From contig CBDDFZ010000001.1 of the NCBI GenBank assembly GCA_965227515.1, positions 3,712,001 to 3,776,000 on the forward strand: a stretch of DNA of 64,000 nt, given 5' to 3'. Shown here piece after piece: positions 48,524 through 64,000 of this stretch. The number at the start of each line of letters is the position of its first letter. Positions within the stretch are counted from its first letter, which is position 1. This DNA is from Alphaproteobacteria bacterium (lineage in GTDB: Bacteria; Pseudomonadota; Alphaproteobacteria; CALKHQ01). The position numbers and the translations under genes were made by a program. The notes beneath the pieces were generated by a model. It did not search any database and was not told the DNA's origin. It worked only from the letters and a program-made list of their open reading frames with translations.

Positions 48524-48936
48524 CAGGGTGTCGCCAATATCGTCAGCAAGCGCACCTCCTGCACGCCGGCCGCGCGCGCCGCGTCGATCACATCCAGCAG
48601 GCCGCCGGCGGAAGCATTGGCGTCCGCCTTCACCCATACCGTCGATGAGCGATCCGCGGGCATGAGACGGTCCAGTTCGGCAGGCAGGTCGGCCAACGTC
48701 ACGACCGTGTCGCCGACGGCAACGCGACCGTCGCGGCCGATCAGGATCTCCACCTCGCGCTCGCCCGCCTCCGTCTCGCTGACCGATTGGGTGGGCTCCA
48801 GCGGAAACGGGCCTTGCGTCACGAACTGACCGGCCAGCATGAAGAACACAAGCAGCAGGAAGACCACGTTGATCAGCGGCAGGATGCCGTCTTCGCTGTC
48901 GACTCTAAGTCCGCGGCCGTGTCGGGTCCCGCGCAT
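48523..48936 (-). CDS. exbD: Biopolymer transport protein ExbD
   Basis: ILPLINVVFLLLVFFML, KADANA. Confidence 0.87.
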   Translation of the reverse strand: MRGTRHGRGLRVDSEDGILPLINVVFLLLVFFMLAGQFVTQGPFPLEPTQSVSETEAGEREVEILIGRDGRVAVGDTVVTLADLPAELDRLMPADRSSTVWVKADANASAGGLLDVIDAARAAGVQEVRLLTILATP

Positions 48937-48937
48937 A

Positions 48938-49366
48938 TTAGGCCCCGCGCTGCAAACTGACCGCGCCACCCACTTGGCGGCTCAGCACGTCGAGAAGATC
49001 GATCACCACCTGAACCGGCACGTCATCGGCCGGGCGCACGACCACGTTTAGCGCCGGATTGTCCGCAAGAAGCGTATCGAGCCGGTCCAGCAAGGTCGCA
49101 CGCTCGAGCGCCTGGCCGGACAGGCGAAGTGTGCCGTCGGCGCCCAGGTCCACGACCACCGCGCCGATCATGCCTTCGCCATCCATTGGCGACATCGGTG
49201 CCGCTGGCCCGTTGGCGAGCGAGATCGTCCGCCAATCCAGGAACGAGGACGCCAGCATGAAGAACACCAGCAGGATGAACACGACGTCGATCAGCGGCGT
49301 CAGGCTGATCATCCTGCGGCGGCGGTTAATCGACGGCCGAGAGCGACGCGCGCGGTTTGAAGCCAT
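48938..49366 (-). CDS. exbD: Biopolymer transport protein ExbD
   Basis: ISLTPLIDVVFILLVFFML; start uncertain. Confidence 0.87.
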   Translation of the reverse strand: MASNRARRSRPSINRRRRMISLTPLIDVVFILLVFFMLASSFLDWRTISLANGPAAPMSPMDGEGMIGAVVVDLGADGTLRLSGQALERATLLDRLDTLLADNPALNVVVRPADDVPVQVVIDLLDVLSRQVGGAVSLQRGA

Positions 49367-50084
49367 GCTTTCCATCGGGTTCCCAGACAGGCTGGCTGCG
49401 TTGCGGTACCGCCGGAATGGCGATGCGGCCGACCATGACCTCCAGGTCGTTGGCAAGACTTTCGATCGCCCTGTCGAACAAATTGACCAGCACCACGGCG
49501 GGCATCGCCACCGCCAGCCCCACGGCCGTGGTCAGCAGCGCCTGCCAGATACCGCCCGACAGGATGGCGGGATCGGCACGCGCGCCTGACCCCTCCAGGT
49601 TCTGAAACGCCTCGATCATGCCAAGGACCGTGCCGAACAGGCCCAGCAGCGGGGCGAGGCCGGCGATCAGCTCCATGATACGCATATGCCGACGCAGCTT
49701 TTCCGCTGCCTCGTCGATCAGGCGATAGGCCTCGGCACGGCCTGGCTCCTCTCCATAGGTGCGACGCGCCGCAATCGCGGCATCGACGATGCGGCTGGCG
49801 ATGCTCGGCCGCGCACCCGCGGGCGCCTGGCGGTCGCCCTGCCGGTAACACTCAACGAGTTGCCGTGCCCGCGCACGATGCCACACGCCCAACCGCAGGA
49901 ACTGGCCGCCCTTCATGAGCGCGACCGCGAGCAGCAGGATCGACAGTCCGACCAGGATCAAGACCACCGGCCCACCTGCGTCGGCAAAATCCATCAGCCG
50001 CGCGAGCACGTCGGGCGGTTGGGCATCGTCCAACTGGGAAACCGGCCCTGTGGCAGTTTCCGAAAACCGACCTTCCCCATCCAC
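49326..50084 (-). CDS. exbB: MotA/TolQ/ExbB proton channel protein
   Basis: APLLGLFGTVLGMI, GGIWQALLTTAVGL. Confidence 0.92.
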   Translation of the reverse strand: MDGEGRFSETATGPVSQLDDAQPPDVLARLMDFADAGGPVVLILVGLSILLLAVALMKGGQFLRLGVWHRARARQLVECYRQGDRQAPAGARPSIASRIVDAAIAARRTYGEEPGRAEAYRLIDEAAEKLRRHMRIMELIAGLAPLLGLFGTVLGMIEAFQNLEGSGARADPAILSGGIWQALLTTAVGLAVAMPAVVLVNLFDRAIESLANDLEVMVGRIAIPAVPQRSQPVWEPDGKHGFKPRASLSAVD

Positions 50085-50108
50085 GGTGCTGTCTCCAGGC
50101 GCCCGGCG

Positions 50109-50576
50109 CTACTTGAAGAAATCGGTCGCCAGGCGCGACGAGACCTCAACTACCGACAGGCAATCACCGGCGACCGGCGGCTCTGCTTCGCAAGCGATGA
50201 CCGTGTTCAGCAGGACACTGCCAATGCCGTCGCACGGCAGCGACGGGATCTCGAAGACGATCAGGCTCGTCTTGTCGGCCGGCAGCGGCGTCGCCGACAC
50301 CGCCAGCCGATCCGCAACAATGCCGTCGGCATCGAACAGCACGAGGTCCAGACGCAGGTCGCTGAAGGTCATGCCGGTGTGGTTGCGGAACAGCAGGTAC
50401 GGCTGACAGCCTTCGCCGGAGTCCGATAGCCGATTGAGTTCGACCTTCAGTTCCTGGCCACCCTCCGCCGCAGCCAGGTTCTCCGGCTCGACCGTCTCCT
50501 GAGCGCTTGCTTGCGCCGATATGGCTGCCAACACCGCCAAACCGCCAATCCAACCTTCCAGTGCTCGCGTCCCCAA
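50109..50576 (-). CDS. Secreted hypothetical protein heading the exbB-exbD-exbD-tonB unit
   Basis: Signal peptide; VELNRL..C..LDLVLFDADG..KTSLIVF..C..LLN..C..C. Confidence 0.7.
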   Translation of the reverse strand: MGTRALEGWIGGLAVLAAISAQASAQETVEPENLAAAEGGQELKVELNRLSDSGEGCQPYLLFRNHTGMTFSDLRLDLVLFDADGIVADRLAVSATPLPADKTSLIVFEIPSLPCDGIGSVLLNTVIACEAEPPVAGDCLSVVEVSSRLATDFFK

Positions 50577-50647
50577 TGCCCTTCGCCCCCTTGGTGCCGG
50601 CCAATCGTCAGCCGATGAGCAAGGCAGTAGAACCTTTCAGTTTGGAA

Positions 50648-50668
50648 TGCAAGTGACTCTCATTCGCA
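50648..50668. promoter_or_regulatory. Fur-like iron box 1 (TGCAAGTGACTCTCATTCGCA)
   Basis: 21-bp imperfect palindrome in the divergent heme receptor/TonB promoter region; matches two other copies. Confidence 0.7.
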
Positions 50669-50690
50669 CTTGACGGGCTGCGAGATGTTG

Positions 50691-50711
50691 TGAGAATGAC
50701 TCTCAATTGCA
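50691..50711. promoter_or_regulatory. Fur-like iron box 2 (TGAGAATGACTCTCAATTGCA)
   Basis: Same motif immediately upstream of the receptor gene. Confidence 0.7.
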
Positions 50712-50746
50712 TGGCTGCGGGAGGTTGCCGTGAGGGGGATTCCGAA

Positions 50747-52843
50747 TTGTATCGCGCAATCATCGGTGGTGCATGCACCACAGCAGGCGTGTTGGTCTTG
50801 AGCATGACAGCGGCGGCACAGGACGCCGAAACCGAAACGAACGGTGCGGGCTTTCTGGAGCCGATTCTTATGACGCCGCTCACCGTGAACGCACCCGGAC
50901 GCGATGAGCGCACGCTCCTTGAAACGCCGGGCACCGTGACCATCCTCACCGACGATGAGATGCAAAGGCTGCTCCCCTCGACGTTCGAGGACGTGTTCGC
51001 CACGACGCCCGGCGTCAACATCGATGGCGGCCCGCGCGGTGTCGCGCAGGAACCGAACATTCGCGGTTTTCGGGACGAGCAAGTGGTGCTTCGTCTCGAC
51101 GGTGCGCGGCAGAACTTCAACCGGGCGCACAGCGGTCGTTTCTTCATCGACCCGTCGGTCCTGAACCGGATCGAGGTTGTGCGCGGCGCGTCCTCCACGC
51201 TCTACGGGTCGGGCGCCATGGGTGGCGTCATCTCGCTGGAAACCAAGGACGCGCACGACCTGCTGGACGAGGAAGACAGCTTCGGCGGCCGTTTCCACAC
51301 CACCTACTCGACCAATGGCGGAGAATGGTTCAACGGCCTGACGCTCTACGGTGACTATGGCGACTTCGACGCGCTGGGGTTCGCCGGGTACCGGCCGATG
51401 AGCGACGACCTGGAGGACGGCGATGGCGCGCCGATCCTCAACAGCGAAGTCGACGTGCGAAACGGGCTGGTGAAATTCGGCTACGAGCCCGGCGCCAGCC
51501 AGCGGCTGGAATTCGGCGCGCTCTACTATCACGACGAAGGCACGTTGCCGCCGAATGCCAATGCCACCGCGACATCGACGACGATCGCAGATCGTAACGC
51601 CGACGTGCGCGGTTATCAGCTGTCCTACGAACTCGACCCGGCGGACAATGACCTGGTCGACCTGTCCGTACTCGCCTACATCAATGACCTGGCCATCAGC
51701 GAGGATCGCCTGGCGGACGGGCGCCTCGACGAGTCCAACTACCGGACCTACGGCTTCGACATCGTCAACCGCTCCGATGTGGAGCTCGGGCTGCCCGTGC
51801 GCCTGACATATGGGTTCGAGGGTTACCTCGACATGCAGACAGGCACCCGAAACGGGGCCGTGCGCCAACAGTTCCCCGACGCGGAGGCCCTGTACCTGGC
51901 CGGCTTCGCCCAGGCTGACCTGGAAGTCTCGGAGTTCTGGACCGTCTCGCCCGGCCTGCGCTTCGACTACTTCTCGCTGGACCCGGACACCGCCACGCAG
52001 CCCGAGCGCAGCGAGAGCCAGGTGTCGCCAAGACTGACCGTCAGTTTCGAGCCCAATGAATCGATGCTCATATGGGCAGGCTGGGCCCGCGCCTTCCGGG
52101 CGCCTTCGCTCACCGAACTCTACAATGACGGCATTCACTTCTCGGTGCCCGGTTTCGGGTTGGGCCCGTTTCTGACCTTCACCGGCAACAACCTGTTCAT
52201 CCCCAACCCTGACCTGAAAGCCGAACGGTCCAACTACTTTGAGCTCGGTTCCAGGCTGTATGACGATGACAGGCTGGTCGAAGACACGCGGATCATGGTT
52301 GCCGGCAGCATCTACTACGCCGAGGTCGATGACTATGTGGACACGTTCGTGACCTTCATCGACGCGGACACGACCACCGGCGCCTTTCCCGCCCAGTTCG
52401 TCAGCGGGTCGACCCGGACCCGCAACATCGATGCCGTGCTGTACGGCCTGGAGCTGGAGGCTTCGGTCGATGCACCGGCGTGGTTCTTTGGCGCCGGATG
52501 GCAGGTCCCGTACGGCGAAGCGGCGGACGGATCCCCGCTTGGCTCGATCCCGCAGACGAAGCTGGCCCTGACCGGGGGCTGGCGCCCCATGCCGGACTGG
52601 GAGGTTGGCGCCCGCGCGACCTTCGCCACCGGCCAAAAGGACGTGCCGCCCGACACCACGCAGGGCAGCGGTTATTCGGTCTTCGACGTGTTTGCGTCAT
52701 GGGAGCCGACCGAGGGACTGCTGGAAGGCATGGCCTTTCACGCCGGCGTCGACAACGTGCTGGACCGACAATTCACCATCTATCCGAACGAACTGCCCCA
52801 GCCGGGGCGGACGTTCAAATTGTCGGCCGCGTTCACGTTCTGA
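50747..52843 (+). CDS. TonB-dependent heme/hemoglobin receptor (HmuR/ShuA-like)
   Basis: Plug IEVVRGASSTLYGSGAMGGVI; FRAP and NPDL motifs with a His between them; C-terminal Phe; TTG start after GAGGGG. Confidence 0.9.
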   Translation: MYRAIIGGACTTAGVLVLSMTAAAQDAETETNGAGFLEPILMTPLTVNAPGRDERTLLETPGTVTILTDDEMQRLLPSTFEDVFATTPGVNIDGGPRGVAQEPNIRGFRDEQVVLRLDGARQNFNRAHSGRFFIDPSVLNRIEVVRGASSTLYGSGAMGGVISLETKDAHDLLDEEDSFGGRFHTTYSTNGGEWFNGLTLYGDYGDFDALGFAGYRPMSDDLEDGDGAPILNSEVDVRNGLVKFGYEPGASQRLEFGALYYHDEGTLPPNANATATSTTIADRNADVRGYQLSYELDPADNDLVDLSVLAYINDLAISEDRLADGRLDESNYRTYGFDIVNRSDVELGLPVRLTYGFEGYLDMQTGTRNGAVRQQFPDAEALYLAGFAQADLEVSEFWTVSPGLRFDYFSLDPDTATQPERSESQVSPRLTVSFEPNESMLIWAGWARAFRAPSLTELYNDGIHFSVPGFGLGPFLTFTGNNLFIPNPDLKAERSNYFELGSRLYDDDRLVEDTRIMVAGSIYYAEVDDYVDTFVTFIDADTTTGAFPAQFVSGSTRTRNIDAVLYGLELEASVDAPAWFFGAGWQVPYGEAADGSPLGSIPQTKLALTGGWRPMPDWEVGARATFATGQKDVPPDTTQGSGYSVFDVFASWEPTEGLLEGMAFHAGVDNVLDRQFTIYPNELPQPGRTFKLSAAFTF

Positions 52844-52891
52844 CCGGAGCGGGGCGGAGCGGACGCAATCCAAGCGGAAGGACAGTCAAGC

Positions 52892-53800
52892 ATGCATAAG
52901 GTACGAAAGTGCGTGTGGCGGGGGTTTGTCGTCGCCTGGGCCGCGGCAACCGCGGCCGCCGCGCCAATAGCTGCCGATCAGCCGGCGTCGCGTGTGGTGG
53001 CTGTCGGCGGCGACCTGACCGAGATCGTCTACGCACTCGGCGTGGGCGACTTGCTGGTCGGCGCCGACACCACCAGCACCTGGCCGGCCGCCGCGAACGA
53101 CCTGGCCAAGGTCGGCTATATGCGCCAGCTCTCGCCGGAAGGGGTGTTGTCCCTGGCGCCGGACCTCATCCTCGCCAGCGCCGACGCCGGTCCCCCGACC
53201 GCGATCGATCGGTTGCGCCAGGCCGGCGTCGACGTGCGCATCGCCCCCGACGAGACGACCGTGGCCGGGGTGGTCGACAAGATTCGGTTTGTCGGCGATG
53301 CCTTGAATGCCACTCAGGCCGCCAATGAGCTTGTCGTGCGTTTCGAAGCGGACATTGCGTCGGTCGAGGCAGCGATTGGGTCGCTTCCGGCCCGGCCCAG
53401 CGTGCTGTTCCTGATATCGACCGCGTCAGGCGCACCGGTCGCCGCCGGGCGCGATACAAGTGCTGAGGCTATCATCGCCATGGCCGGCGGGCGCAATGCG
53501 TTCGACGGTTTCGAAGGCTACAAGCCGGTGGGCGCGGAGGCCGTGATCGCGGCGGCCCCCGACGTGATCCTGTTGCCGACCCACGTAGTGGACGCAGCCG
53601 GCGGCATCAATGCCATCGTGGCGGCACCTGAGCTCGCCGCTACGCCCGCGGTGCGAGACGGCAATATCATCGTGATGGACGGGCTGTTGCTGCTCGGCTT
53701 CGGCCCGCGCACGGCCCAGGCGGCGATCCAACTCGCCCAGGAACTGCACCCGTCGCACGCGACCGACCTGGCGGAGACGTTCGACGACGTCACCGAGTGA
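52892..53800 (+). CDS. hmuT: Heme ABC transporter periplasmic binding protein
   Basis: GGDLTEIVYALG, heme-ligand Tyr in VGYMRQLSPEG, LLGFGPRT. Confidence 0.9.
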   Translation: MHKVRKCVWRGFVVAWAAATAAAAPIAADQPASRVVAVGGDLTEIVYALGVGDLLVGADTTSTWPAAANDLAKVGYMRQLSPEGVLSLAPDLILASADAGPPTAIDRLRQAGVDVRIAPDETTVAGVVDKIRFVGDALNATQAANELVVRFEADIASVEAAIGSLPARPSVLFLISTASGAPVAAGRDTSAEAIIAMAGGRNAFDGFEGYKPVGAEAVIAAAPDVILLPTHVVDAAGGINAIVAAPELAATPAVRDGNIIVMDGLLLLGFGPRTAQAAIQLAQELHPSHATDLAETFDDVTE

Positions 53801-53822
53801 GCCGCTGCGCATCCGTTCCGGC

Positions 53823-54866
53823 ATGAGCCGCCCGCAGGCGCTGGTCTGGCTGATGGCGGCAACGACGATCGGCCTGGCGGTCGCGGAGCTGGCGTTGGGA
53901 CCGGTGAATCTGGGCCTTGCCGAGATCGGCCGCGCGTTCGCCACGCTGTTCTCCCAGGGCACAGGGACCGACCCGGTGGCCGAGACCATCGTCATTCACG
54001 TGCGCCTGCCGCGGGTTCTGCTCGGCATCGCGGTCGGTGGCGCGCTGGGCCTTTCCGGCTGCGCGCTGCAAGGCATCCTGCGCAACCCGCTGGCCGAACC
54101 GGGCCTGATCGGGATCTCGGCCGGCGCAGCCGCCGGAGCGGTCGCGATGATCGTGCTCGGCGACCTCCTTGTCGAGACTATCCCACAGGCAGCCCGAACC
54201 TATGCCGTGCCCCTCGCCGCCCTGGCCGGTGCCGGCGCGGTCACCGCGTTTGTATTCAACGTCTCCAGCCGCTCCGGGCAGACGTCTGTCGCAATGCTGA
54301 TCCTGGCCGGCGTGGCGGTCAACGCCATCGCGGCGGCCGCCATCGGTGCGCTCATGTTCGTGAGCACCGATCAGCAGTTGCGCGACCTGACGTTCTGGAC
54401 GCTGGGCGGCCTCGGTGCGGGCGATTGGATTTCCGTGGGGATCGCGGCCGCCGCAATCACCGTGGCATCGGCCGTGCTGTGGCGTTTGCGACTGGCCCTC
54501 GACCTGCTGCAACTGGGCGAGCGTGCCGCGTTTCATGCCGGGCTGCAGGTGGAACGCAGCAAGCGGCAGATCGCGCTCGCCACCACCCTGGCGGTGGGGT
54601 GCGCCACAGCCGTTGCCGGGCCGATCGGCTTTGTCGGGCTGGTCGCCCCGCATCTCGCCAGGCTGATGCTGGGTCCTGCGCACCGCAGATTGATGCCGGC
54701 CTCCGCCATCGTCGGTGCCAGCCTGGTCCTGGCGGCCGACCTGGTCGTCAGGACCGTGGTGCCGCCGGCCGAGCCGCCGATCGGGCTGGCAACCAGTCTG
54801 CTGGGTGGACCGTTCTTCCTGTGGCTGCTGCTGACGCGTCTGCGCAGGTCAGCACCGTATGCTTGA
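53823..54866 (+). CDS. hmuU: Heme ABC transporter permease (FecCD family)
   Basis: RLPRVLL, RNPLAEPGLIG, GPIGFVGLVAPH. Confidence 0.9.
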   Translation: MSRPQALVWLMAATTIGLAVAELALGPVNLGLAEIGRAFATLFSQGTGTDPVAETIVIHVRLPRVLLGIAVGGALGLSGCALQGILRNPLAEPGLIGISAGAAAGAVAMIVLGDLLVETIPQAARTYAVPLAALAGAGAVTAFVFNVSSRSGQTSVAMLILAGVAVNAIAAAAIGALMFVSTDQQLRDLTFWTLGGLGAGDWISVGIAAAAITVASAVLWRLRLALDLLQLGERAAFHAGLQVERSKRQIALATTLAVGCATAVAGPIGFVGLVAPHLARLMLGPAHRRLMPASAIVGASLVLAADLVVRTVVPPAEPPIGLATSLLGGPFFLWLLLTRLRRSAPYA

Positions 54867-55704
54867 GGTCCGGTCTCTATCCCTGCGGCTTGGCGAGACA
54901 ATTGTCCTCGACAATGTGACGCTGTCGCTTCCCGAAGGCGAGATGACAGCGGTCTGCGGCCCGAACGGGGCCGGAAAGTCGTCGTTGCTGTCCGTACTTG
55001 CCGGCGACCGCCAGCCCAGCCAGGGCACCGCGCTGTGCGACGGCCTGCCCATGGCACAATACCCCGCGAATGCGCTCGCCGCACGGCGTGCGGTGCTCGA
55101 GCAGTCACCGAAGTTGGATGCGCCGTTCAGCGTACGGGATCTGACGGAATTTGGCCTTGCCAGCATGCCGGCACTCGCGCCGTCCGAGGTAACCGCCATC
55201 GTAGACCGGGCGCTTTCCATGGCAGGCGTGGCACACCTCTCGCAGCGCACGGTGAACACGTTGTCAGGCGGCGAGCGCCACAGGGCCCACCTGGCCAGGG
55301 TCTTGGCCCAGACTGCCGGCGGGCGGGCGCTTGGTCATGGCCGCCATCTCCTGCTCGACGAGCCAACCGCCAGCCTGGACCTCCGCCACCAGATCGGCAT
55401 CCTGAGGGCGGTGCAGGCATTGACCGATATTGGGACCGGGGTCCTGATCGTTCTGCACGATCTCAACCTTGCAGCCGCGTTCTGCGACAGGGTGATCCTG
55501 CTCGGCCAGGGCCGGGTGGTTGCCGATGGAGCGCCGGAAGACGTGCTGACGTCAGAGGGCCTAAGCACGCTGTTCGAGGCCCCGATCGCGGTGTCCCATG
55601 CGCCGGGACGGGCCTTGCGCGTTACGCCGGACCTGTCCAGCCGCGCTGTTTGCCGGCGGACCCCGAACGCCGCCGCGCGGGGCCGTTCCGCAACGGCTAC
55701 CTGA
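54859..55704 (+). CDS. hmuV: Heme ABC transporter ATP-binding protein
   Basis: GPNGAGKS, LSGGERHRAHLARVLAQ, LLDEPT, HDLNLA. Confidence 0.9.
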   Translation: MLEVRSLSLRLGETIVLDNVTLSLPEGEMTAVCGPNGAGKSSLLSVLAGDRQPSQGTALCDGLPMAQYPANALAARRAVLEQSPKLDAPFSVRDLTEFGLASMPALAPSEVTAIVDRALSMAGVAHLSQRTVNTLSGGERHRAHLARVLAQTAGGRALGHGRHLLLDEPTASLDLRHQIGILRAVQALTDIGTGVLIVLHDLNLAAAFCDRVILLGQGRVVADGAPEDVLTSEGLSTLFEAPIAVSHAPGRALRVTPDLSSRAVCRRTPNAAARGRSATAT

Positions 55705-56008
55705 GCTCCTGCACCGCCTCGAAACCCTCGAACTGCGGATGACCCAGATAGAGCCCCCGATTCTGGCCGGCATCGGCATGAGCGCGCCGGAACGCTTCCG
55801 ACTTCGTCCAATCCTCGAAGGCGGACTGCGAGGCCCATTCGGTGTGCGAGGCGTAGAGCGTGTGGTCGTCGTTTTCCGGCCCCTTCAGCAGGTGAAAGGA
55901 CTTGAAGCCGGGCACCGAACGCAACTGGCTGTCGCGGGTTTTCCACACCTGCTCGAAATCGGCCTCGCTGCCGCGCCGCACCTGAAACCTGTTCATTGCG
56001 ATAAACAT
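55697..56008 (-). CDS. Antibiotic-biosynthesis-monooxygenase family, IsdG/HmuQ-like heme-degrading enzyme
   Basis: MFIAMNRF, VPGF, WTKSEAFRRAH (Asn/Trp/His pattern); adjacent to heme uptake genes with a Fur-like box upstream. Confidence 0.85.
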   Translation of the reverse strand: MFIAMNRFQVRRGSEADFEQVWKTRDSQLRSVPGFKSFHLLKGPENDDHTLYASHTEWASQSAFEDWTKSEAFRRAHADAGQNRGLYLGHPQFEGFEAVQELR

Positions 56009-56313: not shown

Positions 56314-56538
56314 CTAGAGCAGCAACAATGCCAACACGGCATAAGTGATAACCGTGCCGATCAGAACGATCCCGACGACCCTGGCACCGGACCGGCGATC
56401 CCGCCGATCATCGCGGCGTCTCGCAATTCGGCGTTGGCGCGCGCCCGCGACTTTTCGACGAGATTTGCCGGGTGGCGGCTCCGCCAGACCGATCATTGGA
56501 CGAGCCGGAGCCACGCTCGCCGGGTCGATGTGTTCCAT
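56314..56538 (-). CDS. Small hypothetical protein with an Arg-rich segment and a C-terminal transmembrane helix
   Basis: Starts 9 nt after the SEL1 gene stop; C-terminal VVGIVLIGTVITYAVLALLL. Confidence 0.55.
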   Translation of the reverse strand: MEHIDPASVAPARPMIGLAEPPPGKSRRKVAGARQRRIARRRDDRRDRRSGARVVGIVLIGTVITYAVLALLLL

Positions 56539-56546
56539 GTTGCCTG

Positions 56547-58955
56547 CTACTGCGATTCACTGCATGCGGCCGGGAGCCGCCCCAACAGGCTATCGAGCAG
56601 GTCCTGCGCTTCGGCGCGTTGAGCATCGGTTAGCGCTGACGACACGTTGTTGAGCCTGTCGCGCGCACCGATGATGCCCGCATCGGCCGCAATCGCGTAG
56701 TAGGCATAGGCGCTTTGAAAATCCGGCCGTGCCGCGGCCAGGCCCGAGAGATAGATGCCGCCAAGCCGTTCGGCCGCCAGATACCAGCCCGCATCAAGGG
56801 CTTCGCGGTAAAGCGTCACGGCGGAATCGCCACCGTCGCGGCTGGCTTCCTCGGCCTGGATCAGCGCGAGGCGCCCGGACTCGCAGACGTTGCTCGTGCC
56901 CGCCAGATTGAGTTCGAGCTGCGGCTGGATGATGGCCGCCAGGCTGGCATCCGCCGCCGCAAGGTCGCGCAGTTCCTCGAACGCGCCGCGAACGCCTTGA
57001 CTGTGGGCTTCCAGCAGGTAAGGCACGGCCTCGGCCGACCGGCGCAACTCGATCAACACCACGCCGTACCAGTACGCCGCCACCGCGTCGCCCCCGCTCA
57101 CCGTTGGCTGCGTCAGACTGAGCGCGGTCTGCAATCTCGCTGGGTCGTCCGAGAACCGCGCAACCGTCCGCAACAGGCGGAAGGCGGACCGGCCATCGCC
57201 GGCACGCACCGCCTGCTCGTAGTAGGTCATTGCCTCGGCTGTCGACGGGCCCGACGCGTTGTCCATGGCCAGGTCACCGAGTATGCGGAACGCCCGCGCC
57301 TCGCCCTGGTTGGACGCCTGAACCAGCAGGTTGCGGGCCCGCGCCATGTTGTCGGCGCCGCCCTGGCCGATCAGCAGCGTGGCCAGTTCCAGCCGGGCTT
57401 CCGAATTCCCGGTCGCAGCCGCCCTGTCCAGAACGCCAATCAGGGTGGCTGTGTCGGCCAGGTTCGGGCGCTCCTCGACCAGTTTCGATAACCGCACTGC
57501 CGCCGACGCATTGCCGGCCTGCGCGGCGCGCAGATAGCTGTTCGCCGCAGCCTCGTAGTCGCCGCCTTCCTCCTGGATCCGGCCAAGGTCATACAGAGCA
57601 CCAGCGTCGCCCGATTGCGCCGCCTGTTGTAGCGCGGCGACAGACTGCGGGCCGGCCCCGCCCCCAACCAGGCGCGCGAGCCGGTCGGCGGCGTCGCCAC
57701 GGCCGCCGTTCGCGGCAAGCTGGTAGTAGCGGATCGCCTGCTGAACGTTGGCGATGTCCCTGCCGCCGGATTCCAGCACCCGGCCGACGCGGTAGTACAC
57801 TTCAGGGTCGCCAAGCAGGTCGGCCCAGGCGATGACGATGGCGAGTGCCGGCGCGCGGTTGCCGTCCGGGTCCGTCACGCCATCCTCGAACAGGTTGAGT
57901 ATTCGGCGCGGTGCGGCGTCACGGCCGGCGGCATACGCCGCTTCCAAGTATGCGTAAGCTTCGCCGCGACGGCCGTCGGGCCCGTCGGCAAGGATCGCCC
58001 CGGCGTCATACGCCAGGTCGGGCTGGCCGGCGTCGATAAGCTGCCGGTAGATGGCCAGCGCCTCGTCGATCCGCCCTGTTGTAGCATAGAGATCGGCCAG
58101 ATCCTCGCGCGCCTCCGACGAGCCGGCGGCGTTGGCCTGCATGAATGCGCTTTCGGCCGCCGCCGGATCGTAACCCGGCGCGCCCGGATCTGACGCTATC
58201 CTGCCGAGCACGACATGGCCGCGCGCGTCGCCCCGGTCGATTGCGTAGCCGGCGTATTCGATCGCCCTGGCGCGATTGGCATATGCCGACCCTGGCTCGC
58301 TGTACAACCGAGCCAGGTTGACTGAGGCGCTGGCGTTGCCGCGAACATGCGCCCGTTCCAGCAATTCCATCCCGCGCACACGGTCGACCCGACCATATTG
58401 CGGGTCGAGGTAGATAACGCCGAGGTCGACGAGCGCCGACGTATTGTTTTGCGATGCCAGCGCTTCAAGCAACTCGATCGCACGCGCAATGTCGCGCGGC
58501 CGCCCGCCACCACCGGTCAGTTCGAGCCGCGCGAGCTCCAACTGGGCGGAATCGGAACCGCGCAATGTCGAAAGCACCAGCAAGTCGCGCGTCCGCTCCG
58601 GCGCCAGGTCGACCTCGCCGCGCGCCGACAAGATCGCGAGCCTTTCGCTGGCCCGCGGCTCGCCACGTCGCTGCGCCTCTTCGTACAGCTCCACTGCCCG
58701 GGCGACATCCAACGGCACACCGTCGCCGGTTTCGTAGGCGCGGCCACGGTCGTAGAAGTCACGGGCCGTTTCCAGTCGGACGCCCTGGTCCTGCTGCGCC
58801 TGGGTGGGCGTGAAGCTCGGCCTGTTGCCGCCGACGCACCCCGCCAGCGCCAGCGCCAGCGCACAGTAACCGAGGCCCCTGCCCAGGGGACGGAGTCCTA
58901 TCGTGGAGAGTGGCCGGCTTCGGCGGGACCGCTCCAGTCTATCGATGTCAACCAT
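56547..58955 (-). CDS. SEL1/TPR-repeat lipoprotein (AlgK-like scaffold)
   Basis: Start trimmed to MVDIDRLE; lipobox LALALAGC; many repeats of the A..LG..Y..G...D...A..Y..AA..G type. Confidence 0.82.
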   Translation of the reverse strand: MVDIDRLERSRRSRPLSTIGLRPLGRGLGYCALALALAGCVGGNRPSFTPTQAQQDQGVRLETARDFYDRGRAYETGDGVPLDVARAVELYEEAQRRGEPRASERLAILSARGEVDLAPERTRDLLVLSTLRGSDSAQLELARLELTGGGGRPRDIARAIELLEALASQNNTSALVDLGVIYLDPQYGRVDRVRGMELLERAHVRGNASASVNLARLYSEPGSAYANRARAIEYAGYAIDRGDARGHVVLGRIASDPGAPGYDPAAAESAFMQANAAGSSEAREDLADLYATTGRIDEALAIYRQLIDAGQPDLAYDAGAILADGPDGRRGEAYAYLEAAYAAGRDAAPRRILNLFEDGVTDPDGNRAPALAIVIAWADLLGDPEVYYRVGRVLESGGRDIANVQQAIRYYQLAANGGRGDAADRLARLVGGGAGPQSVAALQQAAQSGDAGALYDLGRIQEEGGDYEAAANSYLRAAQAGNASAAVRLSKLVEERPNLADTATLIGVLDRAAATGNSEARLELATLLIGQGGADNMARARNLLVQASNQGEARAFRILGDLAMDNASGPSTAEAMTYYEQAVRAGDGRSAFRLLRTVARFSDDPARLQTALSLTQPTVSGGDAVAAYWYGVVLIELRRSAEAVPYLLEAHSQGVRGAFEELRDLAAADASLAAIIQPQLELNLAGTSNVCESGRLALIQAEEASRDGGDSAVTLYREALDAGWYLAAERLGGIYLSGLAAARPDFQSAYAYYAIAADAGIIGARDRLNNVSSALTDAQRAEAQDLLDSLLGRLPAACSESQ

Positions 58956-58957
58956 GG

Positions 58958-61234
58958 TCAGCTCTGGCTTTCCTGAGACTGCAGCATGCGCCCCAGCTCG
59001 CTTCCCGCCTGGAAGAAACCGTTCTCGGAAGCCTGGCGCATCCAGTAGATGGCACGCTCCAAATCGGGCTCGCTGAGGAGCCCGCGCTCCAGCGCCACGG
59101 CAAGCTGGAACTGCGCCTCGCTGTCGCCGCTGTTGGCCGCACGCTCCAGCCACGAGAGCGCCGCGACATTGTCCGCGCCTTCCAGTTCGCCGAACGCGAT
59201 CAGGTTCGACATGTAGATCATCGCCGGCACATGGCCGGCCTCTGCCGCCATGAGAAGCCAGTCGTACGCCCGCTCGAAATCGGTGGGCACGACGCCGCCG
59301 GCGGTATACATCAGTCCCAGTTCGGTCGCCGCCGCGACATTGCCTGCCTCCGCACTGGCGGTGAAGTACTCCATCGCGAGGCGCTGATTGATCTCGGCCC
59401 CAATGCCAGTCGCGAAGGCCCGGCCCAGATAGTACTGCGCCTCGACATTGCCCGCCGCGAGCGCGGCCTTGTAGAGTTCGACGGCCTGGTAGGGATCGAA
59501 CTGGCCGGCGGAGCCGTCCCAGTAGGTTCCGGCCAACTCGACCATGGCGTCGGTGTTGCCGAGGTCCACCGCGCGCTCCAGCCACTCCAAGCCTTCCTCG
59601 GTGGTGCCGGCATCGCCCATCTCACCTCGCACGATTGCACGTCCAAGGTCGAGCATATGGTCGCTGGACCCGTTCTCGGCCACGCGCCGGGCCTCGGTCA
59701 GCCACTCCGCGGCATGCTCATCGGACTTGTCGACGCCGATGCCCTGGGCGTAGTGCCGCGCCACCTCGACGATGCCGCGGAAATAGCCGCGTTCCGCGCT
59801 CTGGCGGTAATAAGCGAACGACTGTTCCGGGTCCGGTTCGGCATAGCCGTCATCGCCATGGGCCACGCCGAGGTAGTAAAGCGCGCGCCCGTCGCCCTGC
59901 GCACCGGCGTCGCGCAACAGGCGCAGGCCGTTCTCGGGATCGTAGAGCGGCGAACCCGGATCGGCCTCCAGCTTGATCATGGCCAGTCCGATCGTCGCCG
60001 ACGTCGTCAATGGACGCCCGTTCTCGAGGGACTCCACCACCGTGACGGCGCGGTCGATCCGCCCGGTCGCGACCAGAACCTCGATCAGGTCGATGCTTGC
60101 GCTGACATCGCCCAGGAACGCCGCACGTTGCAGCAGCCGCTGCTCGGCGACCACGTCACCACTGCTGCCGGCCAGCCGTGCGGCAAGGCGGAAGGCGCGC
60201 GCCTCGTTGACCGCCATCGCGCGGTCGAGCCATTGCTGCGCAACGGTCGAGGGCACGTCCATCGCCGACGCCTCGTCGACCAGCAGGGTGCGGGCCAGGA
60301 TGATCGCCGCATTAGCCGAACCTTCGCTGGCGGCCTGGATCAAGAGGTCGCGGGCACGGGTCGGATCGGGTGCACCGTATGTCGGGTCCAGGTACATCTC
60401 GGCGCGACCGACCATGGCGTTCGCGTCGCCCCTGGCCACCGCATAATCAAGCCAGTTCAGCGCCTGGGCGACATCCTGCTCGATGGCAGGATGGCTGAGA
60501 TATGCCTGGGCCAGGTCCACCGCCTCGCCGGTGTCACCCTGCAGCGCATTCTGGCGCAGCATGGCGATGCCAAGCCTTGCCATGCCCTCCGCCTCGGCAA
60601 GGTCCTCCTCGGAGCCGCGGACGATCAACTGGCGCGACAGCAGCAGGGCTGCACGCCCCTCGCCTGCATTCAGGGCTCGGCGCAGCCACGGTTCGCTGGC
60701 CGCCATGTCGGCGGGCGCGCCAACGACGCCTTCGGCCAACGCCCGGCCGAGCTGCAGCGCCGCCGGGCCGTAGCCCGAGGAGGCGGCCTGCTCCAGCATC
60801 GTGCGCGCGGTCGCCAGGTCTTCCGCCGACTCCCGGGTTTCGATCAGCAGCAACGCCAGCTCGTATCTCGAGCGGTTGAGCAGCCGGCGCGCATCGCGCC
60901 CCGGCTCACCGTCCAGCACCTCCACTGCGCGCCTGAGGACGGCAATCGCCTGCTCGGCGTCGGACTGCCACAGGATGTGAGGGCTGGGATGGTTGCTGAG
61001 GTACCGGCCCAACTCGAACAGAACCGCGCCGTTATCGCTGGCACTCATTTCGGTCACCAGCGTGTCGATCAGTTCCTGATCGTTGGACAGCACTGCCGTG
61101 CGCAGGAGATCCAGCTGGTCGACCGTGCCTTCGGCCTCGACCGCGTCGACCGACTGCGCGTTCACGGGCAGCGGGTTCACGACGGCCAGTCCGGCGCTCA
61201 GAATGGCTGCACTCGCCAGAAGCATTTTTCTCAT
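58958..61234 (-). CDS. Periplasmic SEL1-repeat protein
   Basis: Signal peptide MRKMLLASAAILSAGLA; many SEL1 repeats, e.g. AQYYLGRAFATGIG and AATELGLMYTAGG. Confidence 0.85.
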   Translation of the reverse strand: MRKMLLASAAILSAGLAVVNPLPVNAQSVDAVEAEGTVDQLDLLRTAVLSNDQELIDTLVTEMSASDNGAVLFELGRYLSNHPSPHILWQSDAEQAIAVLRRAVEVLDGEPGRDARRLLNRSRYELALLLIETRESAEDLATARTMLEQAASSGYGPAALQLGRALAEGVVGAPADMAASEPWLRRALNAGEGRAALLLSRQLIVRGSEEDLAEAEGMARLGIAMLRQNALQGDTGEAVDLAQAYLSHPAIEQDVAQALNWLDYAVARGDANAMVGRAEMYLDPTYGAPDPTRARDLLIQAASEGSANAAIILARTLLVDEASAMDVPSTVAQQWLDRAMAVNEARAFRLAARLAGSSGDVVAEQRLLQRAAFLGDVSASIDLIEVLVATGRIDRAVTVVESLENGRPLTTSATIGLAMIKLEADPGSPLYDPENGLRLLRDAGAQGDGRALYYLGVAHGDDGYAEPDPEQSFAYYRQSAERGYFRGIVEVARHYAQGIGVDKSDEHAAEWLTEARRVAENGSSDHMLDLGRAIVRGEMGDAGTTEEGLEWLERAVDLGNTDAMVELAGTYWDGSAGQFDPYQAVELYKAALAAGNVEAQYYLGRAFATGIGAEINQRLAMEYFTASAEAGNVAAATELGLMYTAGGVVPTDFERAYDWLLMAAEAGHVPAMIYMSNLIAFGELEGADNVAALSWLERAANSGDSEAQFQLAVALERGLLSEPDLERAIYWMRQASENGFFQAGSELGRMLQSQESQS

Positions 61235-61269
61235 GATTATCCCCCCTTCTTGAGGTTGTCGGTCATGCG

Positions 61270-62430
61270 CTATTGCAGGTCGGCGCCGTTCGGTTCCCAC
61301 CAGAAGCATGTCGCGTTGCCGCCCGCGTAGTCGTCGATCAGCGGGCGCACAGGCGCCAGTTCCAGGTCGCGAAAGGCTTCGATGGTGGAAATGTCGTAGG
61401 CTGCCAGAACAGGCTGATGGCCCAGCTCGGTCCATGCCATGTAGTGCCGCTGGTGGCCGCGGGTTTCCATGAACCCCACGTCCTGCAGCCGGTAGTCCGC
61501 CGTGGGCCCCGGAATGTAGTTCTGGGCGGCGTAGGGGAAGATCAGCGCCGGCTCGACCAGCACAGTTCCCAGATAGTCCAGAATGGACTGGAAGCCCGCC
61601 TTTCCATCGCCGGACGTCAGGTCGATGCCATTCAGGGCCGCGACCTGAGCCATCAGGGCAAGCTCACCTGTCGACATGTTCGTGTACCACATCGCGCGGG
61701 CGCCACGGCGCGCCTCCAGCGGCAGGCTGCCGTCCGCACGCGCCTGGCCCAGCGCGATGTTGAAGCGCTCCACGCCCTTGTCGATGAGTTCGGCGTCGCC
61801 CACGATCGAACCCCACGTCATAAGGGCGGCGTCGGCGAGGTAGCGATGGTTGTTGTGGTCCACGTCCCCGTCGAAGGTGGCATCCAGCCGGCGCACGATG
61901 CCGTCGATCCACCGCTCTACCAGCTCGCGCTGGTCCGGCGTCATGTCGTCGGCGGCGATGCGGAACGCCACCATGGTGGGCAGCATCACGCGCTTGGTCG
62001 CATAGAACGGGTCGTAGTGTGTCGGCGTTTCGCCCAGCGCATCGGCCTCGGCCCAGGCCACCAGACCGTCGATCAGACTCTCGGAGGCGACCGCGTCGCC
62101 CGCCAGGCTGCGGCCGGCCAGCACCATGATCGACCAGGAAAACGCCTCGGCCCGGTTGTCGGTGCCGTACTCGTCGGTCGGGCCGAGGCCGGCGATGGGG
62201 TCGGCGATCGGCAGGACCTCTTCTGCCTCCGCAGCCATGCACGCCGCGAGCGCAGGCGCGTATTCCGGCTGTTGCAACAGACCCCGCCGCACATCGACGT
62301 CGAACACCGCCGGCCCGTAGGCCCCATCGGCGGCGTGTGCGGAGACCGACGCCAGCATCGCACCGCCGGCCAGCAGGCACCGCAGGCCCAGCCGCGCGGG
62401 CCGGACGGTTGAGACTTTCAACGGGTTCAT
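61270..62430 (-). CDS. Alginate lyase family protein (PL5/AlgL-like)
   Basis: Signal peptide; NNH catalytic motif (HNNHRY); DGSLPLEARRGARAMWYTN. Confidence 0.78.
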   Translation of the reverse strand: MNPLKVSTVRPARLGLRCLLAGGAMLASVSAHAADGAYGPAVFDVDVRRGLLQQPEYAPALAACMAAEAEEVLPIADPIAGLGPTDEYGTDNRAEAFSWSIMVLAGRSLAGDAVASESLIDGLVAWAEADALGETPTHYDPFYATKRVMLPTMVAFRIAADDMTPDQRELVERWIDGIVRRLDATFDGDVDHNNHRYLADAALMTWGSIVGDAELIDKGVERFNIALGQARADGSLPLEARRGARAMWYTNMSTGELALMAQVAALNGIDLTSGDGKAGFQSILDYLGTVLVEPALIFPYAAQNYIPGPTADYRLQDVGFMETRGHQRHYMAWTELGHQPVLAAYDISTIEAFRDLELAPVRPLIDDYAGGNATCFWWEPNGADLQ

Positions 62431-64000
62431 GATCCGGGTTCCCAGGTTACGCCGATGTTCGACACCGAATACGTGCCCTCGCACGTAGGCGCCGGCCCGC
62501 CGAATGCCCAGTCGTCCTGTCCGTCGCCGTGGAAAATTCCGGCTTCACGGAACGGGCACCCGTGGTGGCGTTCGAGAGGTTGCTGGCAAAGGTCGGCCAG
62601 CATGAACGACGAGCTTTCAAACGGGTATTGGCGGACCAGCAGGTTCAGCAGCGGCAGGAAGTCGCCTTCCAGCAGGCTGTTGCCGTTGGCGGCCACCCGG
62701 TTGTCAACGAATGTCGCCGCGTAGACATCTTCCATCCGTACGGCGCCGACATTGCCGCTGATGTGGTTGCCGATCAGCGTCGCGGACGCGTAAGTCCAGA
62801 ACGGGTCCTGTTCGAGGTCGCGCCAAGTGTGATCCAGCAACGGATCGGTATCGATGATGACGCCCTCCTTGTCGTTCTGCGTCATCACGTTGTCGAAGAC
62901 CGCGATATCGATGCTGTTGCGGATACGCAGGCCCGTGAGGCTGTTGTGGGAGAGCTGATTGTTCGCAACGATGGCGCATGCCGTCTCATAGACCGCGATG
63001 CCGTCATTGCCGTTTCCCCAAGCCGTGTTTCCGTAGATGATCGACCGGTTGCTGAGCCGATCGAGCATGATCCCGGCGCCGTGGTTGTCGAAGGATATGT
63101 TGCCGACGAAGAGGCCGGAAACCTCGCGCGAAACGATCAGCCCGTGCTTCTTCAACGTGCCGTACGCTGTATTCAGCGCCATCAGCACCGACTCGCTGTA
63201 GTCGTGCGGGTCAGGGCCGTAGATCACATTGTTCCGGTATTCGTTGCCGACGATATCTATGTCGTGGGTGTTGTAGCTGTAGAAGCCGTAGAACAGCCGG
63301 TCGAACAGGTTCTCGACCAGCACGATCTTCGGGCTCTCCATCACGGTCTCGCCCTCGAAGGTGAAGCCCTGCGGGCCGGACGAGACGCTGACACCCCACG
63401 ACTTGCGGTTGTTGTAGCCGAGCGCGCGGAAGTTGGTGCGGGTCGCGTAGATCTCGCTGCCGCTCCACCCGATGAGGAAGGGGCGGAAATTGAAGTCGTT
63501 CTCGCCGCTGACGAGCTCGCTGGGCGCTGACTCCTCGATACCCCAGGACGTGATGACGGTGTCGGCCACCACCATCCTGCCGCCGACCACCAGGTAGGCG
63601 TATTCATCGGTGGAAAGCCGCAGCTCCTTTGCGTCGGCGCCTGAGATCACCAGGGTCGCGCGCGGCCCGACGACGATTGGGCGATGCAGCGTGAAGACAC
63701 CGCCATCCACGGTCAGATAGTCGGCACGGCCCAGGCCGATCAGCGCCTCGCGCAGCATCGAGATCGTGTAGGTGCCGTGCTCAATATAGATAAGGTGGGG
63801 CAGCATCTCGCCTTGCCGCTGGGCGTAGTCCACCACGCCCACGATCTCGATGTACTTCTCGTTGTACGGGGTGCCGGTGATCGGCAGCCGCACGGTCAGC
63901 CCCTCCTCCGAGCCGGCGACAACGCGCTCGCGCACATCGGCGGGGACCAGGGTCAGCGCATCGGCGACGCGGTGGGAGAGGCCCGACAATTCCGGCCAGT
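62427..64000 (-). CDS. algG: Mannuronan C5-epimerase AlgG-like beta-helix protein, 5' end truncated by the window edge
   Basis: FRPFLIGWSGS, FYGFYSY, YRNNVIYGPDPHD (DPHD motif), KKHGLIVSREV, GIMLDRLS; frame open to the window end. Confidence 0.82.
   Translation of the reverse strand, partial: WPELSGLSHRVADALTLVPADVRERVVAGSEEGLTVRLPITGTPYNEKYIEIVGVVDYAQRQGEMLPHLIYIEHGTYTISMLREALIGLGRADYLTVDGGVFTLHRPIVVGPRATLVISGADAKELRLSTDEYAYLVVGGRMVVADTVITSWGIEESAPSELVSGENDFNFRPFLIGWSGSEIYATRTNFRALGYNNRKSWGVSVSSGPQGFTFEGETVMESPKIVLVENLFDRLFYGFYSYNTHDIDIVGNEYRNNVIYGPDPHDYSESVLMALNTAYGTLKKHGLIVSREVSGLFVGNISFDNHGAGIMLDRLSNRSIIYGNTAWGNGNDGIAVYETACAIVANNQLSHNSLTGLRIRNSIDIAVFDNVMTQNDKEGVIIDTDPLLDHTWRDLEQDPFWTYASATLIGNHISGNVGAVRMEDVYAATFVDNRVAANGNSLLEGDFLPLLNLLVRQYPFESSSFMLADLCQQPLERHHGCPFREAGIFHGDGQDDWAFGGPAPTCEGTYSVSNIGVTWEPGS

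Follow-up and report, generated by a model that had tools for sequence, protein, structure and literature searches.

A probable alginate-type exopolysaccharide operon with a TPR-AlgG fusion protein in an alphaproteobacterium

The window analysed here is a 64,000-nucleotide stretch (G000:C1:3712001-3776000) of a 5.52-Mb bacterial genome that is assembled in two contigs and is 99.67% complete. At its end, positions 56314-64000 carry five co-oriented, tightly packed open reading frames (ORFs) on the minus strand. These ORFs are most probably the distal half of a chromosomally native nine-gene operon (eight conserved genes and a doubtful tail ORF), as judged from their sequences and those of the genes beyond the window. 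We consider it likely that the locus is a synthase-dependent operon for an alginate-type (polymannuronate/guluronate) exopolysaccharide, and that it belongs to a distinct lineage in which the epimerase AlgG is fused to a tetratricopeptide repeat (TPR)-like arm. An original prediction, made from the letters of the window, had described a tight run of an AlgG-like epimerase, an AlgL-like lyase, two SEL1 proteins and a small membrane protein, and had placed it in a divergent synthase-dependent polyuronate system outside the pseudomonads. All five ORFs were indeed seen, and the wider interpretation was borne out by the presence of algD, alg8, alg44 and manC.

The window end cuts the fusion ORF, whose epimerase part is the C-terminal third of a 1251-aa protein. 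The next 20 kb were read as locus L003; an L003 coordinate plus 62000 gives the extrapolated window coordinate. In the direction of transcription, the genes are as follows.

L003 8131-9414, minus strand: algD, 427 aa, nucleotide-sugar dehydrogenase matching PDB 1mfz
L003 6556-8085, minus strand: alg8, 509 aa, glycosyltransferase family 2 (GT2) by Pfam
L003 5434-6552, minus strand: alg44, 372 aa, Pfam PilZ and HlyD_3
L003 4179-5414, minus strand: manC, 411 aa, mannose-1-phosphate guanylyltransferase (GDP-mannose pyrophosphorylase) by Pfam and NCBIfam
L003 427-4182 (C1:3774427-3778182), minus strand: TPR::AlgG fusion, full gene, 1251 aa, with signal peptide, solenoid, linker and AlgG domain
Window 62427-64000, minus strand: the part of the fusion gene inside the window, encoding the C-terminal AlgG-type mannuronan C5-epimerase domain
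Window 61270-62430, minus strand: AlgL-like alginate lyase of polysaccharide lyase family 5 (PL5), with signal peptide, Pfam Alginate_lyase PF05426 and NNH motif
Window 58958-61234, minus strand: Sel1 protein A (Sel1A), 758 aa, with Sec signal peptide, Pfam Sel1; predicted periplasmic Sel1/TPR scaffold
Window 56547-58955, minus strand: Sel1 protein B (Sel1B), 802 aa, predicted lipoprotein with lipobox LAGC, Pfam Sel1 and TPR families
Window 56314-56538, minus strand: 74-aa ORF with Arg-rich N-terminus and C-terminal hydrophobic helix; doubtful gene

The operon order is algD - alg8 - alg44 - manC - TPR::algG - algL - sel1A - sel1B, with the doubtful small ORF at the end. Its gaps are 3, 8, 35 and 45 nt, plus one overlap in which the ATG of the lyase gene and the TGA of the fusion gene share the sequence ATGA. 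A GGGGGG-rich ribosome-binding site precedes Sel1A, which begins 35 nt past the lyase stop; Sel1B follows the Sel1A stop by 3 nt, and the small ORF follows the Sel1B stop by 8 nt. As claimed in the original prediction, algG abuts the lyase gene with no algX between them, and the Sel1 genes lie downstream of both. The GC content of the operon (0.63-0.70) is close to that of the window (~0.67, range 0.64-0.70). Scans for promoters and terminators were negative at either end of the operon. An ORF of 182 aa upstream of algD has no family match and no homologue in the relatives, and was treated as non-coding promoter region.

The precursor and synthase genes had been expected past base 64000. Indeed, the genes from the fusion to algD occupy the next 7.4 kb on the same strand; algD, alg8 and alg44 are among them, and manC is there in addition. 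The best solved relative of AlgD is the GDP-mannose 6-dehydrogenase of Pseudomonas aeruginosa (1mfz), which aligns end to end (E 1.1e-119, 403 bits), compared to 231 bits (E 2e-67) for the best UDP-glucose dehydrogenase. Alg8 found no match in NCBIfam or in a PDB sequence search. Among the candidates scored, it has at least 2676 environmental relatives at E<=1e-30; the best 120 are 55-76% identical and include proteins named mannuronan synthase or Alg8 by JGI. Some of the relatives come from metagenome-assembled genomes (MAGs) of Alphaproteobacteria or Rickettsiales, and one from a member of the alphaproteobacterial genus Zavarzinia (Zavarzinia sp.). The PilZ domain of Alg44 aligns to the Alg44 structure 4rt0 (E 6e-13) with QRQFAR and D.S.GGFA conserved. 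Both cyclic di-GMP (c-di-GMP) motifs, RxxxR and DxSxxG, are thereby retained, and binding of this ligand is predicted. ManC scores 386.8 bits on TIGR01479, and the match stops at position 349 of the 467 model positions (1-349 matched), indicating that the phosphomannose isomerase (PMI) domain is lacking.

These four genes also decide against a degradative alginate-utilisation locus made up of lyases and binding proteins, a reading that we regard as extremely improbable. It would suit the two alginate lyases of the neighbourhood, the PL5 enzyme and an RTX-bearing lyase of family 7 (PL7-RTX), and the window alone shows no synthase. However, AlgD, Alg8, Alg44 and ManC are encoded in the same transcription unit just past the window, which marks the locus as biosynthetic. 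Furthermore, no sugar transporter, oligo-alginate lyase or 2-keto-3-deoxygluconate (KDG) pathway gene was found in the operon. The original prediction had itself named the lack of any nearby synthase, GDP-mannose dehydrogenase or porin as the sign of a degradative locus; the first two were found, and the degradative reading was dropped once algD, alg8, alg44 and manC had been read.

The claim of an AlgG-like enzyme was right as far as domain and motifs are concerned (YGPDPHD, YGFY and KKHGLIVSRE are all present), but the protein is no free AlgG. At 1251 aa it differs from a stand-alone AlgG, which has ~520-540 aa and scores above the equivalog cut-off. Its C-terminal part matches Pfam Beta_helix and NosD as well as NCBIfam epimerase_AlgG (NF038177, E 2e-78), and residues 821-1146 align to the AlgG of P. 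syringae (PDB 4nk6, E 8.3e-59) with YG.DPHD and KKHG.I.SRE conserved. Nine fusion homologues all share Y988, D991-D994 and R1019 without change. In such epimerases, the His of DPHD abstracts the C5 proton, the Tyr positions the donor water, and the Arg shields the carboxylate (PMC4444821). The domain is 34-40% identical to Pseudomonas AlgG. A recent transfer from Pseudomonas was considered and rejected in view of this identity, the separate clade formed by the fusions, and a GC content like that of the rest of the window.

The N-terminal 760 residues of the fusion have no sequence match in Pfam, NCBIfam or PDB. An AlphaFold model of this part, calculated from a 15-sequence alignment, consists of 41 helices and no strands (mean pLDDT 79.9, pTM 0.66). 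It is well predicted for residues ~48-675, which are followed by a low-confidence linker (676-741). Foldseek likened the arm to TPR/PPR superhelices (Ski3, Ctr9, IFT-A and the TPR domain of OGT) with E-values down to 3e-6; TM-scores were low, as expected for long solenoids. The protein carries a signal peptide at its N-terminus and is therefore placed in the periplasm. The fusion is thus read as a periplasmic TPR-like arm of ~630 residues that bears an AlgG-type epimerase.

The three further genomes of the host's GTDB family (G001-G003) all keep the fusion and the operon, with protein identities of 35-75%. G001, which represents a sister genus, has the order algD-alg8-alg44-manC-fusion-algL-sel1A-sel1B. 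The order is the same in G002, except that no algL lies in the locus, and the G003 contig ends inside algL. In G003, algD matches in two adjacent frames (L012 7327-8157 and 8159-8626), which reflects a frameshift or an assembly error. Within an even sample of the class (401 genomes, G000 included), seven have an AlgG-like match at E<=1e-10, and the same query found none in the remaining 394. Six of the seven are of the fusion type, namely the four of the family plus G012 and G354, and the seventh (G317) has a stand-alone AlgG.

When the full-length fusion was compared with 5.8 billion protein clusters, a search that scored only the 8000 candidates sharing most words, eight other proteins of 1203-1243 aa were found to be 42-51% identical; two of them are named from 'Alphaproteobacteria bacterium' MAGs. 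An exhaustive HMMER search of the N-terminal 760 aa against 1.84 billion representatives returned 46 matches at E<=1e-3, three of them at E<=1e-30. NCBIfam was scanned with 14 of these 46: five (1114-1239 aa) have a C-terminal AlgG domain, and the other nine are generic TPR proteins or unassigned. The fusions in this set amount to eight representative clusters (the five scanned and the three close matches).

We also built a tree of 46 AlgG domains, 17 from fusions and 29 labelled stand-alone, by a quick IQ-TREE run with a midpoint root used for drawing only. The 28 database rows among the stand-alone domains were hand-picked from 120 listed, the other 92 being left out. One branch (SH-aLRT 100) has on one side all 17 fusions and a single row labelled stand-alone (P0174). 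This protein is a fragment of 621 aa from a contig of 2 kb, and a 1242-aa member belongs to the same 90% cluster, indicating that all members of this side are fusions. By these counts and this tree, the fusion architecture is rare and forms a single, well-supported clade, apart from 28 stand-alone AlgGs and found in a few alphaproteobacterial lineages.

Outside the family, the fusion loci (G012, a 'Rhizobiaceae bacterium' MAG and G354) are rearranged, and their additional genes encode further Sel1/TPR proteins, a GT2/GtrA pair, a protein with an ALGX domain or one with GGDEF. Within the family, G001 has downstream extras: genes for an AlgF-like and an ALGX-domain protein, one more Sel1 gene (the third) and the gene of a 1588-aa beta-helix and RTX protein. 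None of the beta-helix+RTX, ALGX-domain and AlgF-like proteins was found in G000. The positions of these extras are as follows.

L013 3450-8216, minus strand: G001 protein of 1588 aa with a beta-helix (Pect-lyase_RHGA_epim) and 38 RTX stretches, the architecture of a secreted AlgE-type epimerase
L013 11544-13385 and L009 1990-2889, both minus strand: the ALGX-domain/AlgF-like set of G001

The PL5 lyase is supported by Pfam (PF05426, E 2.4e-24, 86.7 bits against a cut-off of 22.2) and by PDB matches to the PL5 lyases 7fhz and 1hv6 and to AlgL (4ozv/7sa8). Its NNHRY sequence and the Tyr of RAMWY align to 7fhz (NNH.Y; R..(W/H)Y), in agreement with the His and Tyr whose roles are given in PMC11890756. 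Sel1A, whose length of 758 aa is counted from the start codon that yields a Sec signal peptide, matches Pfam Sel1 with E 1.5e-43, and has orthologues in G001 and G002 at 38-46% identity. Both Sel1 proteins match AlgK weakly: Sel1A scores E 4e-12 on NF038194 and E 4.4e-8 on PDB 7ula_B (AlgK), and Sel1B, with a length of ~800 aa, E 4.7e-9 on NF038194. A lipobox is present in all three Sel1B orthologues (LAGC, LGGC and AAGC). Because Sel1B and both of its orthologues share this feature, Sel1B is functionally the most AlgK-like component and the predicted counterpart of the AlgK lipoprotein in function, though not necessarily its orthologue.

The small membrane protein of the original prediction fared less well. 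The ORF exists and has a hydrophobic helix, but it is not conserved. Its GC content at third codon positions (GC3) is 0.67, compared to 0.80-0.86 in the neighbouring genes, and it has no family match in Pfam or NCBIfam. A tblastn search found no match in the loci of four relatives, only two of which (L009 of G001 and L011 of G002) extend past Sel1B, and neither of these two has a comparable ORF after Sel1B. The ORF is thus doubtful and probably not part of the conserved system. A ~93%-alike contig from a biofilm metagenome joins 56413 to 56560 and skips 146 bases, i.e., most of this ORF.

An alternative is that the components make a uronic-acid polymer other than strict alginate. This could be pure mannuronan, or the beta-helix domain could have a different specificity (lyase-like or another epimerisation), and the large set of TPR/Sel1 parts would then belong to a machine of another design with another product. 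All components lie far below the NCBIfam equivalog cut-offs, the AlgG domain sits on a long separate branch, and its catalytic residues are common to epimerases and lyases (PMC4444821). On the other hand, the substrate-supply genes indicate GDP-mannuronate, the Tyr/DPHD/Arg triad of the epimerases is invariant, the gene of a mannuronate-type PL5 lyase shows translational coupling with that of the fusion, and an alginate-type PL7 lyase adjoins the operon. In view of these four points, we judge a non-alginate product to be unlikely, though it is the strongest of the alternatives considered.

Several observations weigh against an alginate-type system, at least one that secretes its polymer. The curated equivalog cut-offs were all missed, by AlgG (264 bits against 700), AlgK (45 bits for Sel1A and 35 for Sel1B, against 700) and AlgL (64 against 366). 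The AlgE porin expected past base 64000 was found neither nearby nor elsewhere. A search with PF13372 (Alginate_exp) gave no match in G000, whereas the same search was positive in the control genomes G317 and G012, the porin of the latter being on another contig. Using phmmer, no match at E<=1 was obtained among 16,247 six-frame ORFs of G000 (>=150 aa) with three barrel queries: that of G317, the porin of G012 and, from a 1014-aa TPR protein of G354, the barrel-like region at the C-terminus. BCSC_C (PF05420) was not found in G000 either. Pseudomonas mutants without AlgK, AlgX or AlgG produce nothing but lyase-degraded oligomers (PMC4444821). Polymer secretion might thus fail where AlgX and AlgE are missing, and a working system of this kind must be wired differently.

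Other places for a porin were considered and rejected. With tblastn, the barrels of G354, G012 and G317 had no match in G000, so that all searches for a porin elsewhere in the genome came back empty. A porin hidden in Sel1A or Sel1B would not fit their C-termini, which appear to be Sel1-like helical sequence without a terminal aromatic residue, and one hidden in the fusion would not fit the N-terminal model, which contains no strands. The search with PF13372 was also negative in G001 and G354.

AlgX and AlgF were not detected in G000 by Pfam (PF16822 and PF11182), a result that is weak by itself, as these searches gave zero in all control genomes too. In addition, tblastn found no significant match in G000 to the ALGX-domain proteins of two genomes (G001 and G317) or to the AlgF of the former. 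No AlgI or AlgJ is encoded within the locus. Among the loci compared, that of G000 is the most stripped-down version.

A decaying or non-secreting remnant, yielding at most periplasmic material that is degraded by AlgL, would explain why porin, AlgX and AlgF are undetected in the genome, and would agree with the oligomers of the Pseudomonas mutants. Nevertheless, we consider it improbable. None of the eight conserved genes is broken, their coupling is tight, and the catalytic motifs are invariant in the nine fusion homologues. The porin-less layout is also found in the sister genus (G001), and its retention in the family at 35-75% protein identity argues for purifying selection.

Far from the operon, the genome has two MBOAT (AlgI/PatA-like) genes whose products are 36-40% identical to the AlgI-like protein of G317. 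They could acetylate peptidoglycan or a polysaccharide, possibly the polymer of the operon. Their positions are as follows.

G000:C2:640691-645014 (L025 6692-11015): MBOAT gene 1, followed by two GDSL/SGNH genes (one DUF459)
G000:C1:2868569-2869960 (L026 6570-7961): MBOAT gene 2

The 1014-aa protein of G354 (L021 3624-6668, minus strand), encoded in a fusion-type locus, has N-terminal TPRs and an apparently strand-rich C-terminal part of ~270 residues that ends in TITRAF, resembling an outer-membrane barrel. It may be a TPR-porin in the style of PelB or BcsC that replaces AlgE; its C-terminal part has no Pfam match, and no homologue was found in G000. The low-GC alphaproteobacterium G317 (2 Mb) carries a set of alginate genes that is nearly canonical; its AlgG stands alone, and an AlgK::AlgE-like fusion of 654 aa is encoded as well (Sel1+Alginate_exp; L023 13962-15926, minus strand).

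The observations are homologies, conserved catalytic and ligand motifs, gene order, its retention among relatives, and searches for AlgE, AlgX and AlgF that came back empty; from these we infer product, assembly, regulation and export route, above all the outer-membrane step, of an alginate-type system. ManC would provide GDP-mannose, which AlgD would oxidise to GDP-mannuronate. Alg8 would polymerise the latter at the inner membrane and translocate the chain, under the control of c-di-GMP acting on the PilZ domain of Alg44. The membrane-fusion domain of Alg44, the ~630-residue TPR arm, Sel1A and the lipoprotein Sel1B could together form the periplasmic conduit. During passage of the chain, the tethered AlgG domain would turn some mannuronate into guluronate, and the PL5 lyase would clear polymer straying into the periplasm. 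Since the locus has no AlgX or AlgF, it probably does not O-acetylate the polymer. The latter would cross the outer membrane via a channel outside the AlgE family, and the PL7-RTX lyase may trim or release it outside the cell, by analogy with AlyA3 (PMC4444821).

More tentatively, fusion-type operons might represent a third, undescribed alginate architecture, in which the epimerase is built into the scaffold and the polymer exits by a new outer-membrane route without an AlgE-family porin. This is a possibility to which we give somewhat less than even weight. Candidates for the exit are an unrecognised barrel to which the giant Sel1 lipoprotein docks, and a TolC-type channel recruited by the membrane-fusion domain of Alg44.

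Compared to the operon of P. aeruginosa and Azotobacter vinelandii (algD-8-44-K-E-G-X-L-I-J-F-A), the locus shares AlgD, Alg8, Alg44, the AlgG domain, AlgL and the GDP-mannose pyrophosphorylase half of AlgA. Like that operon, it is a single unit that starts with algD and includes a predicted Sel1/TPR lipoprotein resembling AlgK. In contrast, AlgE, AlgX and AlgF are undetected here, AlgI and AlgJ are absent from the locus, and AlgG is fused behind a TPR-like solenoid of ~675 residues. There are two Sel1 proteins of ~800 aa instead of one AlgK, which has 475 aa in the Pseudomonas type. The Sel1 genes are at the 3' end, manC lies mid-operon and lacks the PMI domain, and the host is an alphaproteobacterium.

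A long periplasmic TPR superhelix covalently joined to another secretion module, as predicted here from the model, is also known from PelB, BcsC and PgaA. In these proteins, the TPRs are fused to an outer-membrane beta-barrel, whereas here they are joined to a modifying enzyme, with no barrel and BCSC_C undetected.

The lineage was originally thought not to be known to make alginate. This holds insofar as no experiments were found in the searchable literature, but numerous Alg8 homologues occur in alphaproteobacterial MAGs, and predicted operons have been published. Bundalovic-Torma et al. (2020, PMC7112194) predicted 64 alginate operons, including 'atypical' ones without algKE or algGXLIJF, and their supplementary table lists Dinoroseobacter shibae (Alphaproteobacteria) with AlgD-AlgA-Alg8-AlgF-AlgI-AlgJ-AlgX. 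An alginate-like locus in an alphaproteobacterium is therefore not new in kind. The atypical operons of that study resemble the present one in lying outside Pseudomonas, and they show rearrangements and losses of algKE and of modification genes. The D. shibae entry has roughly the opposite subset, as it is without Alg44, AlgG, AlgL and AlgK and keeps the acetylation genes. No mention of a TPR::AlgG fusion was found in the text and supplement of PMC7112194 as covered here, figure S5 being outside that coverage. Nor did the literature search bring up a paper on alginate biosynthesis operons of alphaproteobacteria or on fusions of TPR and AlgG, subscription journals being outside its scope. Within this scope, we found no description of the TPR::AlgG clade, of the combination of the fusion with duplicated giant Sel1 proteins, or of the absence of an AlgE-family porin in complete or near-complete genomes.

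The current model of alginate synthesis and secretion (Alg8/44-AlgK-AlgX-AlgG-AlgE) rests almost wholly on Pseudomonas and Azotobacter. The present locus would be a natural variant in which the cytoplasmic and inner-membrane core is kept, the Sel1 scaffolds are multiplied, and the porin and AlgX, both essential in Pseudomonas, are undetected. It could thus serve as a comparative test of which contacts within the secretion machine are truly required, and the fusion is a 'Rosetta-stone' hint that the TPR scaffold works together with AlgG as a single unit. If the polymer is secreted, there would be a new export route across the outer membrane to identify. Biotechnology, too, might have some interest in a bacterial alginate without acetyl groups.

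As originally claimed, the host is an alphaproteobacterium; it belongs to a small, mostly uncultured family and is no pseudomonad. Two genomes of its GTDB family (G002 and G003) match contigs whose titles name Alphaproteobacteria. The complete two-contig genome suggests a cultured strain. Contigs that are 90-100% alike, at low depth, from four runs of three studies cover 24, 24, 28 and 15 of the 30 bins into which the stretch is divided. By their labels, two runs (one study) are biofloc metagenomes, another is a biofilm metagenome and the last a coded organism, and the metagenome contigs come from close relatives of the host in floc and biofilm samples.

At its 3' end, the operon is directly abutted by an ABM monooxygenase gene and a TonB-dependent iron or haem uptake cluster (window 46898-56008), which are apparently unrelated to it. 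On the other side, a regulator gene is divergent from algD across a 750-bp gap and is also found upstream of algD in G002 and G003; it is followed by the convergent gene of the PL7-RTX lyase. The neighbouring features are as follows.

Window 46898-48637, minus strand: TonB, iron or haem uptake cluster
Window 49326-50084, minus strand: ExbB, same cluster
Window 50690-52843, plus strand: TonB-dependent receptor, same cluster
Window 52892-55704, plus strand: periplasmic binding protein, FecCD permease and ABC ATPase, same cluster
Window 55697-56008, minus strand: ABM monooxygenase, between the uptake cluster and the operon
L003 10165-12522, plus strand: PAS/receiver/LuxR regulator
L003 12907-15180, minus strand: PL7-RTX lyase, 757 aa
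L003 16343-19730, minus strand: 23S rRNA, 5S rRNA and a tRNA gene, past the PL7-RTX lyase gene

The PL7-RTX lyase has RTX blocks on both sides of its PL7 domain, as seen from Pfam and from matches to PL7 lyases, and the C-terminal block matches the R-modules of Azotobacter AlgE6. Its architecture resembles that of the secreted lyase AlyA3 of A. vinelandii, which combines PL7 with Ca-binding R-modules (PMC4444821). Unlike in AlyA3, the RTX blocks flank the PL7 domain on both sides, and a role in cyst germination is not inferable for the enzyme described here.

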